Below are positions 29,552 through 42,534 of a stretch of DNA of 64,000 nt, piece after piece; within the stretch, counting starts at the first letter, position 1; each line of letters opens with the position of its first letter. The notes beneath the pieces were generated by a model. That model was not told the DNA's origin and made no database searches. It was given only the letters and a program-made list of their open reading frames with translations. The stretch is from a virus. The stretch lies in the UHGV virus genome UHGV-0179803; one strand, given 5' to 3'. Made by a program: the position numbers and the translations under genes.

Positions 29552-30196
29552 CTACCCCCTTATAAGATCTTCAGCTATCTCTACCCGTCGTGAGACTATC
29601 CTTTGATCATAGTCGAGATAACCATCCTTCACTTTACTCAAGATTCTTTCAGCTTTTAATTTATTTTTAACAGCTATGGCTTCCTCCAATGTGTTACAGC
29701 TTTTGCTTTTACCACGACCATCACGAACTTCATATTTTTTACAAGGAGTTATACGTATACCTGGTGGATAGTCTGAAGCCTTTTTACCTCTCCTGGTCAA
29801 CAACATATTATTTACATCCAAAGGAACAAAACAGCAGGTGTCTCTACTATACTCCTTTCTACCACTCTTATTAAGAATGTCTTTATCTAAAGCATAGTTT
29901 CTACCATACTTATCCTTCATGTGATACCCCGGGGCTGTTTGGCAAAAATCACAAAAATCTTGAAAATCCTTAAAACAATTTTTTACTCCAGCATAAGTGG
30001 GCTTATTTTTCTGGTAAGCCGACCCCAACCTTGTTCTCTGTTTAATATTAAACCATATCATACCTGCTTTTGTTACAACTTTGTAAGATTTATCACCTAC
30101 AACAACTTCAACACAGTGGCACCATGTACCGTCTCTAAATTTAAAGTCAAAATCTAACAAATACCACTCTACAGGTTTTCTATTTCTCTTTTTCAT
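29552..30196 (-). CDS. homing endonuclease-like protein with AP2-like domain (putative)
   Basis: AT-rich ORF between ligase and membrane protein genes; C-terminal GIRITPCKKYEVRDGRGKSKSCNTLEEAIAVKNKL is AP2-like; Cys/His-rich N-terminal half. Confidence 0.45.
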   Translation of the reverse strand: MKKRNRKPVEWYLLDFDFKFRDGTWCHCVEVVVGDKSYKVVTKAGMIWFNIKQRTRLGSAYQKNKPTYAGVKNCFKDFQDFCDFCQTAPGYHMKDKYGRNYALDKDILNKSGRKEYSRDTCCFVPLDVNNMLLTRRGKKASDYPPGIRITPCKKYEVRDGRGKSKSCNTLEEAIAVKNKLKAERILSKVKDGYLDYDQRIVSRRVEIAEDLIRG

Positions 30197-32981: not shown

Positions 32982-33455
32982 TTAGTTACCTTTTGCGTAA
33001 TTCTCCAACCACGAAAAATCAGTTTCCCAGACCTTGATCTTGCTTAGTTCTCTCCACTCTTCGAAGCACGCTTCATAATACTCCTGTGCCTGCTGTTCTG
33101 TCAACCAGTTTACGTCAGCAAAATGTTTTCTTGCACGGAGATAAACATCCCTGCCGAGGCAATTGCAGCGGCCAGGATGCACACTCATATGGCAGTCTGG
33201 GCACAATGCGATCAGACCCACACAGGTGATCTTGTGATCTTCGAACAGGTACAACTCGTGGGCTTCCACAGGATGTTTAGGTCCTTTACCACCACAGACT
33301 TCGCATCTGTACTCTGCTTCTTTGTAACAGCGTTTACGGGCTTTATCCCACAAGCCACGACCGATAGCTTCACGTCCTGCTACCCCCCACAGCGGTTTAG
33401 GGATAAGCTGAACGATCAGCATTTTCTCTTCACGCATTTTACGACCGTCTTGCAT
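32982..33455 (-). CDS. Cys/His-rich zinc-binding protein
   Basis: CEVCGG...CPDCH...CNC clusters; first gene after regulatory region, promoter TTGACA/TATGGT at 33527..33500 on minus strand. Confidence 0.45.
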   Translation of the reverse strand: MQDGRKMREEKMLIVQLIPKPLWGVAGREAIGRGLWDKARKRCYKEAEYRCEVCGGKGPKHPVEAHELYLFEDHKITCVGLIALCPDCHMSVHPGRCNCLGRDVYLRARKHFADVNWLTEQQAQEYYEACFEEWRELSKIKVWETDFSWLENYAKGN

Positions 33456-34091
33456 GTAGCACCTCTCTTCTTATGCATACTCTTACCAGTAGGCGAACCA
33501 TAACATAATTTTCATTTGCTGTCAATACTGATTTAAACGCTCTCAAACGCTCTGTAACGCTGTTGGTAGTTTAGTAATGCAACTGTAGCACTTAGTCACT
33601 ATTAGCTCACCACAGAAGCTACCAGAGGCCTCAAAGCCGATTTCTGGTGTTGGGATAAGGTTGAAGCGGCGGCGCAGACTTTCGACGGCTCCTCCCGGCA
33701 GCTTCGCTTTTCGCCGTCATCCCACATTAGCACCTCCCTCACGGTCGGTGATCTTCCCACACAACTCAGGCAGCTCTGTTGTCACAGACCTGCTATGTAC
33801 CCACATACATCTTCTGGATTGTTGATAATATAATATAAAATTTATTAAAACAATCCAGAAAAATAACCACCCACAGCCTGATCATCTGCTACAAAGCACT
33901 GCTTTGTCACTCCAGTGCTGTTGTCAGTGGATCATGATAATAATTATCATTAAGAAAGAGATCATTGATCAATTTGTAACATGCATAAAAAGTATGTTGA
34001 AGAGAGATCATGGAGGTGGTGGTAAATACCACAGAACTACCATCAAACAGACAGCGGAGGGTGTGCTTGGTATTAGCACCCACCTCCTAGT

Positions 34092-34122
34092 CTATTTTCT
34101 TTCTTTAGAAAGAAGAAAATAG
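34092..34122. repeat. imperfect palindrome
   Basis: CTATTTTCTT...AAGAAAATAG inverted repeat flanking the iteron array. Confidence 0.4.
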
Positions 34123-34128
34123 TTAGGT

Positions 34129-34243
34129 GGGCCATTATTTGGCCCTTAGAATTCAGTTTAAGGGCCATTATTTGGCCCTTGGAAGCGTTTTAAGGGCCAT
34201 TATTTGGCCCTTGGATTGACTTTTATGGGCCATTATTTGGCCC
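34129..34243. repeat. four direct copies of 17-bp palindromic iteron GGGCCATTATTTGGCCC
   Basis: copies at 34129-34145, 34162-34178, 34194-34210, 34227-34243, spaced 32-33 bp; each has internal dyad GGGCCA/TGGCCC. Confidence 0.8.
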
Positions 34244-34435
34244 TTAGAATCACTCATATTGGTGGGATTTATGGTATTTTCTGTTTATTGTCAAACAGTT
34301 ATAACAGTATTTCATTCTGTTGGTATCTTTATATAGACCGATCAGTCTATTACAACTATTTAACAAATGCCGACACTGTACAAAATTTCTGAGTTTTCAT
34401 GTTTGACATTTCGTTAACAAATCACCAATACAGTA

Positions 34436-35110
34436 TTATTTTCTTCTTTGAGGGAAGGGTATGTGGTCATATCCTTTCCCTGCATTATCATTCACCCATT
34501 TCAGGAAGTCTATTCTGTCTTCGAACACGTATTTCAGGTCACAACCCTCTGTACGGTACAGCATCAGGTAGTTCACCTGATTGGCATCTGGTAATTCATT
34601 CACCATTGCCAGGCGACGTGCTGGTACTCTCGTGCACAGATTTTTACCATCTTGTGGTTGCCTGCTGATCACAAGGCCAATTGACTCCAGGAACTTGATA
34701 CTTTCTGCTACCTTCCGGTTCCTGTTGTGGTTCTTGTCATATGGCAATCCTGCTTCCATAGCGATTACATGTGTGGAATCCCCGCACCAGTTGTTCCTGT
34801 GCATATCTTCATAGCTTGTCTGCTTACGAATCTGGTAGCATTTGAACTGGATTCTGTTCTGATCAGCAAGATGACTCAACACTGCCTTGTCAATATTGGT
34901 CAGAAACAGGCAGCTTTTCTCTGCCCACACACTACCAGCCTCAGGGATTCTTCGCTTATCGAAATCTTTCCTGTTGGTCACATCTGCCGGATTTTTCACC
35001 CACACAGCAAACAGGTTGTCAACCTTCCGATGACAATCGTCGTTGCCAAAGCAGATGTTTTTGTTGAACCAGTTCTCCAGTACGCTTGATTTGATCTCTT
35101 GTTCTGCCAT
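34436..35110 (-). CDS. hypothetical protein with winged-helix-like segment (candidate iteron-binding protein)
   Basis: 224-aa ORF ending 19 nt... (gene end 34436) about 190 bp from iterons; segment VAESIKFLESIGLVISRQ resembles a recognition helix-wing. Confidence 0.4.
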   Translation of the reverse strand: MAEQEIKSSVLENWFNKNICFGNDDCHRKVDNLFAVWVKNPADVTNRKDFDKRRIPEAGSVWAEKSCLFLTNIDKAVLSHLADQNRIQFKCYQIRKQTSYEDMHRNNWCGDSTHVIAMEAGLPYDKNHNRNRKVAESIKFLESIGLVISRQPQDGKNLCTRVPARRLAMVNELPDANQVNYLMLYRTEGCDLKYVFEDRIDFLKWVNDNAGKGYDHIPFPQRRK

Positions 35111-35523
35111 CTCTGTTACCTTCTTCTGTTTTTAACAGAGTATAGCAGGCACAAGGCCTGCTGTCAATGTTCACTCGTCACGTAATGCTTTGATCATCTG
35201 TTCGAAGAATCTCCTTGCATCGTCGTAGTGCTTGTTCAGGAGTGCTTCTTTATAGTAGTAACGATAAACAACGTATTCAACGCCACGCATATGCCACCTC
35301 ACTTGTTGTCAGCTTCAATCATCAGGAGTAATGCATCTTTGAACCCCATAAAAAGAACGCCACAGCGAATTTGCGGGTACGCCCTCAGGATTGGGAGCAT
35401 GTACACCTTCTCTTCGTCACAGAACGTTTGAACGCTGTAGAATACGATTCTTCTCATGGTGGTTTCCTCCTATGTGTGCAAAACATATCACACCTTGTTG
35501 TGGAAGTCAAGAATAAAATCATG

Positions 35524-37899: not shown

Positions 37900-37975
37900 G
37901 CCCCGTTAGTTCAAATGGAAGAACAGTGGCCTTCTAAGCCATAGGTTACAGGTTCGAGTCCTGTACGGGGTGCCA
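37900..37975 (+). tRNA. tRNA-Arg (anticodon TCT)
   Basis: cloverleaf by hand: acceptor GCCCCGT/ACGGGGT, D-arm GTTC-AAATGGAA-GAAC, anticodon stem GTGGC/GCCAT with loop CTTCTAA, T-arm ACAGG-TTCGAGT-CCTGT, discriminator G, encoded CCA. Confidence 0.85.
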
Positions 37976-38809: not shown

Positions 38810-39102
38810 GGTGGTTACTTGCATTAGCGATTGCACTCACGTTTTCTATGGCCCTGGTAGGTTGTAGCTCACCTAAAAGTACGCCAGTTACAGTTGCACC
38901 GCAGAAAGTTGAACAACTTGCTGTAGAGCCTCCTGCGGCAGCTATGATCCCACCAGCAATAGCTATCCCCTTGGTGAAAGGTGCACCAGATGCGGATAAC
39001 TCTGCAATTATGAGGCAGAACAATCTCTCCTGTAGCAATGATCGTGCCAAATTAATCATCTTGCAGGATTATGTAAAATCTTTATTCAATAAGGAGAATT
39101 AA
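38806..39102 (+). CDS. o-spanin (Rz1-like lipoprotein)
   Basis: signal peptide plus lipobox LVGC, Pro-rich mature region; stop overlaps terL ATG. Confidence 0.75.
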   Translation: MRWLLALAIALTFSMALVGCSSPKSTPVTVAPQKVEQLAVEPPAAAMIPPAIAIPLVKGAPDADNSAIMRQNNLSCSNDRAKLIILQDYVKSLFNKEN

Positions 39103-40215
39103 TGGCTAAAATGTATGGCCCATGCTCCCGTAAACAACAAATGATTCTGGAAAATGATGCCGACTTCCTGATCATTGGTGGGGCAGCGGGTTGTTTGTCA
39201 ATGCGACATGAGGTGATGACACCTAACGGGTGGATCAGAATATCGGAATGGGATGGTCAAGATATCCTCCAGTTTGATAAAGAAACTGGTAAGGCCATGT
39301 TTATCCAGCCTGAAGAGTTTGTTAAGCTGGAATGCGACAAACTAACCAGGATTGTGCAGGATGGTATTTGTCAGGAATTATCCGACGAGCACACAGTTCT
39401 GTACGTCCCAGAAGACGGAACAGCTTACGGTACACTTAATTTCGGAGAAGTGGCTGAACAGTATGCTAACGGTGAGTTGGCAATGCGTATGCAGACCACG
39501 TTTGTGAACATGGGTGGTACTGGCCTTGGCATTTCTGACGAAGAGCTGAAAGAAAGGGCAAGATATTACAAATTCACAGATGAGTGGTATAATTGTGATC
39601 GTCGTCAGTTGTTGCAGATCTGGTATGAGATTTACCTGAACGGTAATGATCCCCATGCCTACGTTGTTCCAACGAAAGAACAGGCTGATTTCTTGCAATA
39701 CCTCGGATCATCTTTAGGTTTCAACGCACAGATCTTCTTCGAAGAAGGTTACAAAGTTGTGTTCTCTAATGAACGTGCAGGTACGATTGCTCTTAATAAC
39801 GATGCAACGTTCGAAGAGTTTGAGCCGGAAGATGGTTACAAATATTGTTTTGCTACCACAACAGGCTATTTTATCACCAGACTGGAAAACTGCATTGCAG
39901 TGACTGGTAACAGTGGTAAATCCTTTCTTCTACAGCTTCTCCCACTAAAGATGATAGATGACCCCAACACTTCTGTGGTGATGTTCCGTAGGACAACTCC
40001 ACAACTGGAAGGTGAAGGTGGTCTGTGGCCTAAAGCACTGAGTGTGTATCTGGATCTTCCTGAGTACATGAGGCCGAAATTCAGAGAGAAAGACCATAAG
40101 TTTACTTTTCCATATTATGATGCAAAGACGGGCAAATGGAATAAGAAAAGAGACGGAGCAGTAATCAAATACTGCCATATGGAATACGTCCAAGATAAGC
40201 TGAATCATCAAGGGT
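39102..40215 (+). CDS. terL: terminase large subunit, exon 1 (ATPase domain, includes intein)
   Basis: MAKMYG...DFLIIGGAAG | intein | SGKSFLLQ reconstitutes Walker A GGAAGSGKS; ORF ends at TAA 40215-40217, proposed to be created by the intron. Confidence 0.75.
39192..39911 (+). mobile_element. intein (240 aa) inserted in terminase P-loop
   Basis: begins CLSMRHEV (Cys1, block A), EHTVLYV block B-like, ends YFITRLENCIAVTGN (C-terminal Asn) followed by Ser +1; removal gives contiguous Walker A. Confidence 0.75.
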
Positions 40216-40742
40216 AAACAAACCTGCCCTTCGTGCCTAATTCGGTGAAACTCCTTGACAAAAGGACAATACCGAGCTACGGTTAAAGGATTAGTTGAAA
40301 CCGAGTGTAACGACTATCCCCGATGAGTGTAGGGGAGTAGAATCACAAGCGATTGGTGATCCAAACGGCACGCCAAGGAGGGAAGAGCTAGTCTGTTCCA
40401 CATGGTAACATGTGGCGGGTGTCTTAGCACACCGCGTCGGAGTAGCGATCCGGCGGGACAAAAGTGGAATATACTTTAATATGTTTTGATGAGGGTTAAC
40501 TGGTAGCTCTCGTAAAACCTCCCTAATTGCGGGGAAATCTTTACTATTGACACCACCAACCTATTATGGTAACATAATATTGGCTTCGGAGAAATACCGA
40601 AGGTATGGTAATAGCGTGTTGATTTAGATAATCCGCAGCGAAGCATCCTGATAGGATGTGTGCTCAACGACTATCGCTTACGGGCGTTAGGGCCAAGCGG
40701 CTGGGGAAACCCACAGTCTTTTAAGACTGCCGAAACGGGAGG

Positions 40743-41454: not shown

Positions 41455-42534
41455 ATGAGGTCGAAATCGAAATACTCTTCACGGATGGTGATCAGCTGTA
41501 ACCCGGATTCTGAACACTATTTAGCCAAACTGGTTCGTTGGTGGCTTGACGACGAGGGCTACCCAGATGAAAGCAAGTGTGGCGTTAAGCGCTATTTCAT
41601 CCGTAGGGATGGGGAATTTATCTTCGGCGATACGCCAGAAGAGTTGATCGAGAAGTATACCTATGTTAACGGCAAAGGTGTTGAGATAATCCCAAAACCA
41701 CTCTCTATCGCTTTTATCGGTGCAACAATCCACGATAACCCCATCTGCTTGCGTGATAACCCAGAATATCTTGCATTCCTGGAAGGTCTGCCAGAGCTGG
41801 AAAAAGCACAACTCCTCTACGGTAACTGGTTCGCTAAGCCTGAAGGTGCAAACTATTTCAGTCGCACATTCTTGAAAGATGCGGATCATGTCCCCCTCGG
41901 AGCAGTTTCTGTAAGAGCATGGGATAAAGCTGGTACAGAACGTACCTCTGGCAACAAATTCCCCGACTATACAGCCAGTATCAAGGTCAGTAAGGATAGT
42001 GATGGTTACTACTACATCTCCGGTGACTATTGCCCTGAAAACGTAGATGATGGCAGATATTCTACGGGCTTGCACGGTAAGTTCTGCAAGAAAGCTGGGG
42101 AACGTGATGTTATTATCAAGAAACAGGCAGAGTTTGATGGTGAGGACTGCGTAATTGTCTTCTCTGTGGACCCCGGTCAGGCAGGTAAGAGTGAGTTTCT
42201 TACTTCATCTCGTAAACTTCTTGCCGGAGGGTTCAGGGTAGAAGAAGACCCAATGCCGTCTAACAAATCAAAACTCACCCGTTTCTCCCCGTTTGCCAAC
42301 CTTGCCCAACAAGGGATGGTGCGGCTTGTCCGGTCAAGTTTCGACCCGGATACACTGGAAGCATTTTTGACAGAGCTGGAGAAATTTAACGGCGAACGGT
42401 CAACCTTTAGCCGTAAAGATGATTGGGCTGACTCCATTGCTTCTGCAATTAACTACCTTGAAAAAGAGGAAGTTGCTATGCCATGTGTTATTCCGAAGAT
42501 TGTTTCACCCTCTATGTATAAGAGGATGATTTAA
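41455..42534 (+). CDS. terL: terminase large subunit, exon 2 (nuclease domain)
   Basis: VRAWDKAGTERTSGNKFPDYTA and DWADSIASAINY match terminase nuclease motifs; frame open from 41332, true 3' splice junction unresolved within ~41399-41454. Confidence 0.75.
   Translation: MRSKSKYSSRMVISCNPDSEHYLAKLVRWWLDDEGYPDESKCGVKRYFIRRDGEFIFGDTPEELIEKYTYVNGKGVEIIPKPLSIAFIGATIHDNPICLRDNPEYLAFLEGLPELEKAQLLYGNWFAKPEGANYFSRTFLKDADHVPLGAVSVRAWDKAGTERTSGNKFPDYTASIKVSKDSDGYYYISGDYCPENVDDGRYSTGLHGKFCKKAGERDVIIKKQAEFDGEDCVIVFSVDPGQAGKSEFLTSSRKLLAGGFRVEEDPMPSNKSKLTRFSPFANLAQQGMVRLVRSSFDPDTLEAFLTELEKFNGERSTFSRKDDWADSIASAINYLEKEEVAMPCVIPKIVSPSMYKRMI

Follow-up and report, generated by a model that had tools for sequence, protein, structure and literature searches.

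The stretch analyzed here is a 64,000-nt part of the virus genome UHGV-0179803 (hereafter the window), and the locus in question is a 980-bp gap within it, where four copies of a 17-bp palindrome lie downstream of the gene for an orphan protein, ORF224 (ORF, open reading frame). Judged from its genes, the window belongs to a lytic myovirus of the rV5-like (Vequintavirinae-like) kind: its NrdD is 75% identical to NrdD of rV5-like phages, with which the conserved genes share approximately 76-77% nucleotide identity. Minus-strand genes of DNA metabolism (ligase, exonuclease, MazG-like, NrdD) extend up to about 35.5 kb, and beyond that point the plus strand carries an anti-repressor-like gene, a tRNA-Arg gene, spanin genes, a split large terminase gene and structural genes. 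The main parts of the locus are listed below in the direction of ORF224 transcription.

34436 to 35110, minus strand: ORF224, an orphan protein of 224 amino acids (aa) with a winged-helix core at about residues 108-167, the putative initiator
34129 to 34243, no strand: array of four copies of a 17-bp palindrome, putative iterons, located by a scan for exact copies
34120 to 34127, minus strand: junction motif CCTAACTA, directly past the last palindrome
34092 to 34122, no strand: imperfect palindrome with 10-nt perfect outer arms, 77% A+T, a candidate DNA-unwinding element
34012 to 34087, no strand: long GC-rich inverted repeat bounding the AT tract, with 20-nt arms at 34012-34031 and 34068-34087
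33530 to 33791, minus strand: conserved element of about 260 nt, a candidate structured RNA with hairpin H1 (33731-33750) and helix H2 (33684-33718)

The palindrome GGGCCATTATTTGGCCC occurs in four exact copies (34129-34145, 34162-34178, 34194-34210 and 34227-34243), with start-to-start distances of 33, 32 and 33 bp, that is, about 3.1 helical turns. Each copy has a TTATT centre between 6-bp arms, GGGCCA and TGGCCC, and the flanks lengthen the dyad to TAAGGGCCA...TGGCCCTTA (9 bp). An earlier reading of the letters alone (the sequence-only reading) had reported four copies in direct register at 34129, 34162, 34194 and 34227, 32-33 bp apart and internally dyad-symmetric, and the exact scan agrees on every one of these points. 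No fifth copy was found within the 64 kb with up to three mismatches allowed, and none of 100 shuffled windows contained four or more copies, an outcome that was the same when the centre was left free. The spacers between the copies are partly alike and 15-16 bp long; a CRISPR (clustered regularly interspaced short palindromic repeats) array was rejected on that length, on the 17-bp repeat (the criterion being 23-47 bp) and because no Rfam CRISPR match was obtained at the array.

The array begins 193 nt past the stop codon of ORF224 (35110..34436), within the leftward gene arm. The sequence-only reading had described its surroundings as a non-coding region of about 1 kb, and the 980-bp gap can indeed be taken as non-coding because single-base indels separate close relatives there. 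It had also placed the array at the junction of two transcription arms, which proved incorrect: the genes on either side (35110..34436 and 33455..32982) are both on the minus strand, and the strand switch, together with the global minimum of the cumulative GC skew, lies at about 35,490 (35,494). The module adjoins a major gene-orientation divergence in every case, including the relatives.

These relatives (given L numbers here) were gathered by means of the 17-mer itself, exact-protein look-ups and degenerate-pattern scans; megablast and tblastn searches with the region and with ORF224 gave no match among 50,697 phage records, and the 17-mer search retrieved two IMG/VR contigs of about 140 kb. 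Across approximately 30 palindrome copies in eight relatives, all 17 bases are kept except for one loop substitution, while spacers and flanks diverge and the copy number is 2, 3 or 4; the sequence-only reading had staked its proposal beforehand on such conservation in related phages. Two contigs with an ORF224 homologue of 57-58% identity carry the same 17-mer twice, 34 bp apart, in arrays that begin within about 20 nt of the stop codon. Moreover, L008 and L009 have the central TTATT in the reverse orientation with respect to the gene, which matches the expectation for a symmetric dimer site on duplex DNA. Base-for-base conservation, the lack of compensatory changes in the stems and this indifference to orientation together argue for a symmetric protein-binding site and not for selection on an RNA hairpin, so that the repeats are constrained as sequence and not as structure. 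Single matches to the 17-mer in L002-L004, and one in L018 that falls inside a 517-aa open reading frame, were taken as chance.

The protein encoded next to the array has no match in Pfam, PHROGs, NCBIfam or the sequences of the Protein Data Bank (PDB). Six close homologues were found among 5.8 billion clusters, and a full hidden Markov model scan added one distant group, which was expanded to four proteins of 303-311 aa and about 30% identity (clade B: P0008 and P0010-12). The clade-B genes come with a palindrome array of their own: on four independent contigs there are 3-5 copies of (C)GTATCAnnTTGATAC(G), the site being GTATCAACTTGATAC, at 22-bp spacing, and in all four genes the array begins about 10 nt past the stop codon. 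The segment in which the two clades diverge most is the helix-turn-helix. That the repeat sequence tracks the protein clade is the main argument for ORF224 binding the array. No ORF224 relative was detected in 185,579 bacterial and archaeal species genomes. One clade-B relative, L014, has a tyrosine integrase gene (5943-6569) downstream of the array and the initiator-like gene, at a distance of 1.5 kb, and may represent a temperate phage or satellite rather than a lytic phage.

To model ORF224 with AlphaFold (AF2), an alignment of 11 sequences was used; the seven close ones alone had given an unusable predicted local distance difference test score (pLDDT) of 41, and it was the four distant homologues that rescued the prediction. 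The resulting model (pLDDT 71.5, predicted template modelling score 0.75) has a winged-helix core, and its best structural match is PDB entry 4RO3, the N-terminal DNA-binding domain of RepA from the PLE satellite of Vibrio cholerae (PMC7145576); a Foldseek search against the PDB returned no significant match. Fur, MarR, SarX and other winged-helix transcription factors make up most of its structural neighbours. Matches among viral structures, all weak, include a putative replication protein O (E 0.049), a 'replication initiator A' and a DUF6945 protein, and no small-terminase structure is found among the top structural matches. The sequence-only reading had pointed to a helix-wing-like segment in the frame 34436..35110 and to its product as the cognate binder; a winged-helix core is modelled and the palindrome changes with the clade, from which we infer the binding itself. 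Overall, ORF224 is very probably the cognate binding protein of the array, and the orphan family to which it belongs, with about ten members known, gains a probable function.

Past the array, the remaining parts follow in a fixed order. From the last palindrome to CCTAACTA, then to the AT tract and the GC-rich hairpin, this order is kept in 8/8 of the ORF224-family modules examined, and the motif CTAACTA occurs once, at the junction position, in the same 8/8, including modules with different palindromes. The 31-bp tract (77% A+T) begins 6 bp beyond the four palindromes and coincides with the imperfect palindrome at 34092-34122, which has 10-nt perfect outer arms and had been picked out by the sequence-only reading. 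AT-rich tracts of 30-50 bp stand at the equivalent place in L008, L009, L012, L013 and L014, and across the ORF224-family modules the tract takes the form either of a palindrome or of 9-bp tandem repeats. The GC-rich inverted repeat at 34012..34087 is 100% conserved in L005 and L006, and hairpins of other GC-rich sequence occupy the same position in L008, L009, L012, L013 and L014. The idea that the L005 record starts at a contig end inside the gap was discarded, as L005 is a slice of a contig and the difference is a real insertion.

An equivalent module is present in rV5 and phages of its type. Between their ligase and terminase genes lies a 116-aa winged-helix gene, rV5 gp075 (nomo_167), whose product matches 4RO3 by sequence (E 3e-6) and belongs to phrog_12838, 'replication initiation protein', a name also used in RefSeq; it is often annotated as 'putative transcriptional regulator' as well. 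Past this gene there are 17-bp palindromes, TGTCCGTnnnACGGACA, in three (nomo) or four (rV5, Aya) copies spaced by 21-22 bp. AT-rich DNA of about 130 bp follows at the place equivalent to the AT tract of the window, and after it an element that aligns with window positions 33530-33791. The two modules therefore agree in their ligase-terminase neighbourhood, in lying beside the strand switch, in the order of their parts and in the conserved downstream element. They differ in that gp075 is a direct sequence relative of 4RO3, whereas the similarity of ORF224 to this group is at best marginal, in the palindrome sequence and spacing, and in their orientation relative to the flanks, which is opposite. 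In structure, both proteins lead to 4RO3. Literature searches for an rV5 origin, for iterons or for a local non-coding RNA found nothing relevant.

An exchange of cassettes is seen in L007, L010, L017 and L025, in which ORF224 is kept at 77-95% identity and the GGGCCA array is replaced, along with the ORF224 C-terminal tail, the 190-nt spacer and the AT-rich part. The replacement brings a second winged-helix gene of 132 aa, ORF132 (L007 4729-5127; L017 3729-4127; L010 1458-1856; L025 about 2230-2630), which is collinear with nomo_167 and 4RO3 and has repeats of its own, TTATCGGTATGGAAACC or GTACGGAAACC. Since the breakpoint falls inside the 3' end of the ORF224 gene, the ORF224 copies concerned have a different C-terminal tail; the same tail was also seen fused to an AntA N-terminal domain in P0007, and one leftover copy, P0004, has lost 11 wing residues. 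On these alignments the exchange looks like the swapping of replicon modules.

Taking these observations together, we consider it about an even call that the array consists of iterons for ORF224 dimers and, with the AT-rich tract, forms a replication origin of this rV5-like phage. Under such a scheme, ORF224 would be made early from its near-consensus host-type promoter (35167..35139), and its dimers would occupy the four 17-bp dyad sites, which, being about three helical turns apart, would lie on one face of the DNA. The nucleoprotein complex would then distort the DNA and open the 31-bp AT-rich palindrome that begins at the CCTAACTA junction, where the phage replisome would load, and forks would proceed both ways, in the same orientation as the two gene arms, whose point of divergence is 1.3 kb away. 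Binding by ORF224, unwinding of the tract and origin activity are all steps that we infer.

Several points weigh against an origin here. In phages with T4-like replication machinery, replication can start without iterons. Four relatives have an intact ORF224 gene and no GGGCCA site, so that protein and array do not strictly go together. ORF224 gave no match to RepA_N (PF06970), Rep_3 or Phage_rep_O in Pfam up to E 10, an hhalign comparison with the alignment of gp075, ORF132 and 4RO3 reached only E 0.056, and the structural model relies on an alignment of 11 sequences. The GC-skew minimum is weak evidence because skew and gene orientation are confounded. Scans for DnaA boxes gave nothing consistent, for which reason host initiator boxes were dropped, and GATC runs, present in the window as well as in the L007 and nomo modules, do not occur in every module.

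The explanation that best survives beside the origin is that of an operator array, with ORF224 regulating transcription through the four sites and replication not starting here; for example, the protein could block read-through from its own gene to what lies downstream, or control the element 33530-33791 and the HNH gene. We regard this as unlikely and retain it as a rival, which preserves the repressor half of an alternative offered by the sequence-only reading. It would suit the many Fur-, MarR- and SarX-like neighbours of the model and the frequent annotation of rV5 gp075 as a regulator, and the occurrence of ORF224 without the array in four relatives is easier to understand for a regulator than for an essential initiator. 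However, the array is 3' of the gene and not over the ORF224 promoter, no sigma-70-like promoter overlaps it on either strand, and the nearest minus-strand promoter candidates are weak (9/12) and more than 150 nt downstream. An operator would also have no obvious use for the conserved CCTAACTA, the AT tract and the GC hairpin, and both the best structural match and the rV5 analogue indicate initiators. As Rep-type initiators often autoregulate, both roles could coexist.

A different division of labor would centre on the element at 33530-33791, which is found downstream of every initiator/array cassette, including those of the rV5 and L007 types (copies at L001 7320-7570, L007 5770-6030, L019 190-560, L008 1230-1500 and L013 6230-6500). 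Its hairpin H1 has GNRA loops (GUGA, GUAA, GAGA) and compensatory changes, from C-G to U-A in the closing pair and from CACC/GGUG to CUGCC/GGCAG in the outer stem, and H2 is a 6-bp helix with three fully paired versions; compensatory change is clear in these two helices only, which were examined by hand. The 5' part consists of a variable number of hairpin units between UGUGGG-like motifs, and insertions of 47 and 94 nt there in L016 (about 4330-4420) and L017 (about 4850-4900) duplicate CTGAGTTGTGTGGG, indicating that this part grows by unit duplication. Rfam searches at gathering and permissive thresholds returned only the tRNA-Arg gene and noise, with no family for the element, and blastn of the element gave no match. 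By single-sequence folding its energy as a whole is unexceptional (z -0.95), and RNAalifold on automatic alignments yielded weak consensus structures. We therefore propose it as a candidate new structured phage RNA, which constitutes a separate lead. It could be imagined that the origin is composite, with swappable initiator-iteron cassettes (ORF224, ORF132, gp075 and clade-B types) placed upstream of an invariant RNA core and the initiator merely licensing; the core would then act as a primer, as an R-loop-forming transcript or as a loading platform for the phage replisome. We find this arrangement decidedly unlikely.

Very unlikely, too, is a role in packaging, according to which the array would be a pac- or cosB-like site and ORF224 a small-terminase-like protein directing the large terminase. 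In phage lambda, cosB consists of repeated sites for a winged-helix protein and adjoins its gene, and no recognisable small terminase gene stands beside the large-terminase gene of the window, where spanin genes are found instead. In addition, the public record A141 ends 74 nt past an rV5-type winged-helix gene, about where the rV5-type array begins, and headful packaging has been reported for one Vequintavirus (PMC13211470). However, the structural matches listed above lack a small terminase, 4 kb and a change of strand separate the ORF224 gene from that of the large terminase, and the terminal repeat mapped in KPP-1 is elsewhere.

At the RNA level, the palindromes might also act within the 3' untranslated region of the ORF224 mRNA, whether as stem-loops that stabilise it, as terminators or as RNA-binding sites. 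The array would be transcribed in the ORF224 sense unless an earlier terminator intervenes, and its RNA is very stable (-70.7 kcal/mol, z -9.0), but a strong fold is the trivial consequence of any palindrome array. On the transcribed strand the stems lack a following U-run, and no minus-strand terminator was found in the array, the terminator scan giving only plus-strand pairings between neighbouring repeats. Stem variation of a compensatory kind is zero, and conservation is base for base including the loop, which points to sequence-specific recognition instead of selection for pairing; in L008 and L009, moreover, the loop runs the other way with respect to the gene. Such a role is thus highly improbable.

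Plasmid centromeres typically consist of dyad-repeat arrays beside the gene for the protein that binds them, yet a partition site with a winged-helix adaptor, comparable to sopC/SopB or tubC/TubR and likewise suggested by the sequence-only reading, can be regarded as extremely improbable, since a scan of about 20 neighbouring proteins found no NTPase of the ParA, ParM or TubZ type, the genome is that of a virulent rV5-like myovirus, and the absence of ORF224 relatives from bacterial and archaeal genomes gives no sign of a plasmid or prophage lifestyle.

The gap and its borders hold further features, as follows.

35139 to 35167, minus strand: sigma-70-like promoter of ORF224 (TTGACA, 17-nt spacer, TATACT, TG before the second hexamer)
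33880 to 34010, no strand: AT-rich stretch in which GATC occurs five times, along with the dyad TGATAATAATTATCA
33812 to 33860, no strand: the most AT-rich 40 nt of the gap, within perfect 12-bp inverted repeats TTCTGGATTGTT and AACAATCCAGAA
33497 to 33525, minus strand: sigma-70-like promoter of the downstream HNH gene (TTGACA, 17-nt spacer, TATGGT, TG)
32982 to 33455, minus strand: HNH endonuclease gene, neighbour of the module (phrog_5200, E 1.4e-52)

The ORF224 promoter is near-consensus, with 11/12 matches, and is kept in five relatives. Its spacer is a 6+5+6 palindrome, GCAGGCCTTGTGCCTGC, that has the geometry of the iterons and a different sequence. This palindrome, too, is conserved in five relatives; it may act as an operator, or else serve the small open reading frames upstream as a terminator. 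Within the AT-rich stretch, the dyad TGATAATAATTATCA is at about 33934-33948 and GATC occurs at 33880, 33930, 33960, 33967 and 34006, that is, five times in 130 nt against a window mean of 4.6/kb, which makes it the densest cluster of the window and possibly a target of Dam methylation. The sequence-only reading had mentioned an AT-rich tract with this dyad and with GATC-containing dyads, and its elements were found in place; clustering of GATC as a general feature of the module was set aside, only some modules having clusters. Its 'GC-rich island' at 33560-33780 corresponds to a real stretch, but one that is only moderately GC-rich (52% G+C over 33530-33795 versus 43.7% for the window). In the near-identical L006, the stretch equivalent to 33812..33860 has an A+T fraction of 0.90.

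The promoter of the HNH gene is kept in relatives. A second HNH gene (29552-30196) abuts the DNA ligase gene; both are located in the replication arm and probably encode homing endonucleases. The gap was also considered as a group I intron that bears the HNH gene, a view rejected for want of an Rfam intron match and of a split host gene, and as a terminal repeat of the genome, which was rejected because the 514-bp repeat mapped in KPP-1 sits elsewhere, at a convergent junction. Scans of the gap for tRNA and tmRNA genes found none. Elsewhere in the window, a single tRNA-Arg(TCT) gene (37900-37975) occupies the place where about seven tRNA genes are clustered in rV5-like phages. Two open reading frames about 1.2 kb apart encode the large terminase: 39102-40217, which also has a PhoH-like N-terminal part, and 41455-42534; rV5-like phages have an endonuclease gene between the terminase pieces, and the split may reflect an intron, an intein or a homing-endonuclease insertion. 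Among the relatives, L008 (977-4186) and L013 (5912-8493) have stretches of 2.5-3.2 kb past the module in which hardly any genes are called and neither a tRNA nor an Rfam match occurs; they contain several repeat families, such as 48-nt units with a period of 120-124 bp at L008 3464-3755.

Vequintavirinae (rV5-like phages) are common coliphages that are widely used as candidates for therapy and biocontrol, and the locus described here is a concrete candidate for an rV5-like origin and its initiator. For rV5 gp075, whose annotation is by similarity only, our results also suggest binding sites directly downstream of the gene, and they indicate that initiator-and-site cassettes are swapped at one fixed locus in large lytic phages, an exchange comparable to that of replicon modules among lambdoid phages. 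Should this be confirmed, phage engineering could make use of the sites, for example in replicating payloads and with regard to the incompatibility of co-infecting phages.

With phased dyad repeats, an AT-rich tract and a hairpin, the layout is, by analogy, origin-like, and can be compared first with RepA_N origins. RepA of the PLE satellite binds iterons of the PLE origin in electrophoretic mobility shift assays and is needed for PLE replication, and the iterons of the RepA_N kind are direct repeats of semi-palindromic form, their inverted halves converging on an A-tract (PMC7145576). Four copies of GGGCCA-AATAA-TGGCCC in direct register fit this form. On the other hand, PLE RepA has no detectable sequence similarity to ORF224, which is longer by about 60 residues at its N terminus and differs in its C-terminal part, and here the element is in the phage genome itself instead of a satellite, with the array directly past the gene.

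The resemblance to ori-lambda, which the sequence-only reading had proposed, holds for the layout and the dyad iterons. In ori-lambda, four iterons, imperfect inverted repeats of 18-19 bp, are bound by O dimers and joined to an AT-rich unwinding tract, and relatives have 4 to 6 iterons (PMC7466680; PMC3349717); here, four 17-bp dyads are followed by a 31-bp tract. However, ori-lambda is inside the O gene, whereas this array is 193 nt past a stop codon (about 10-20 nt in relatives), the iterons of lambda are spaced by about two helical turns and not three, and no gene for a P-like helicase loader is adjacent. ORF224 has no Pfam or PHROG match to the O family and only the weak structural match (E 0.049). 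As it is not an O homologue by sequence and the array is outside the gene, the term 'lambda-type' applies by analogy only.

Finally, the iteron plasmids of the Rep_3 type (F RepE, R6K pi, pPS10 RepA) differ in having asymmetric direct-repeat iterons that are bound by monomers, with inverted repeats serving as operators, whereas the repeats described here are dyad-symmetric and ORF224 has no Rep_3 match. They share with the present module phased repeats, winged-helix initiators and an AT-rich unwinding element, and in them, too, the initiator gene and its iterons form exchangeable cassettes. Altogether, these comparisons suggest that an iteron origin and its winged-helix initiator are joined at the locus; systems of this kind are known, but none had yet been described in this phage group.

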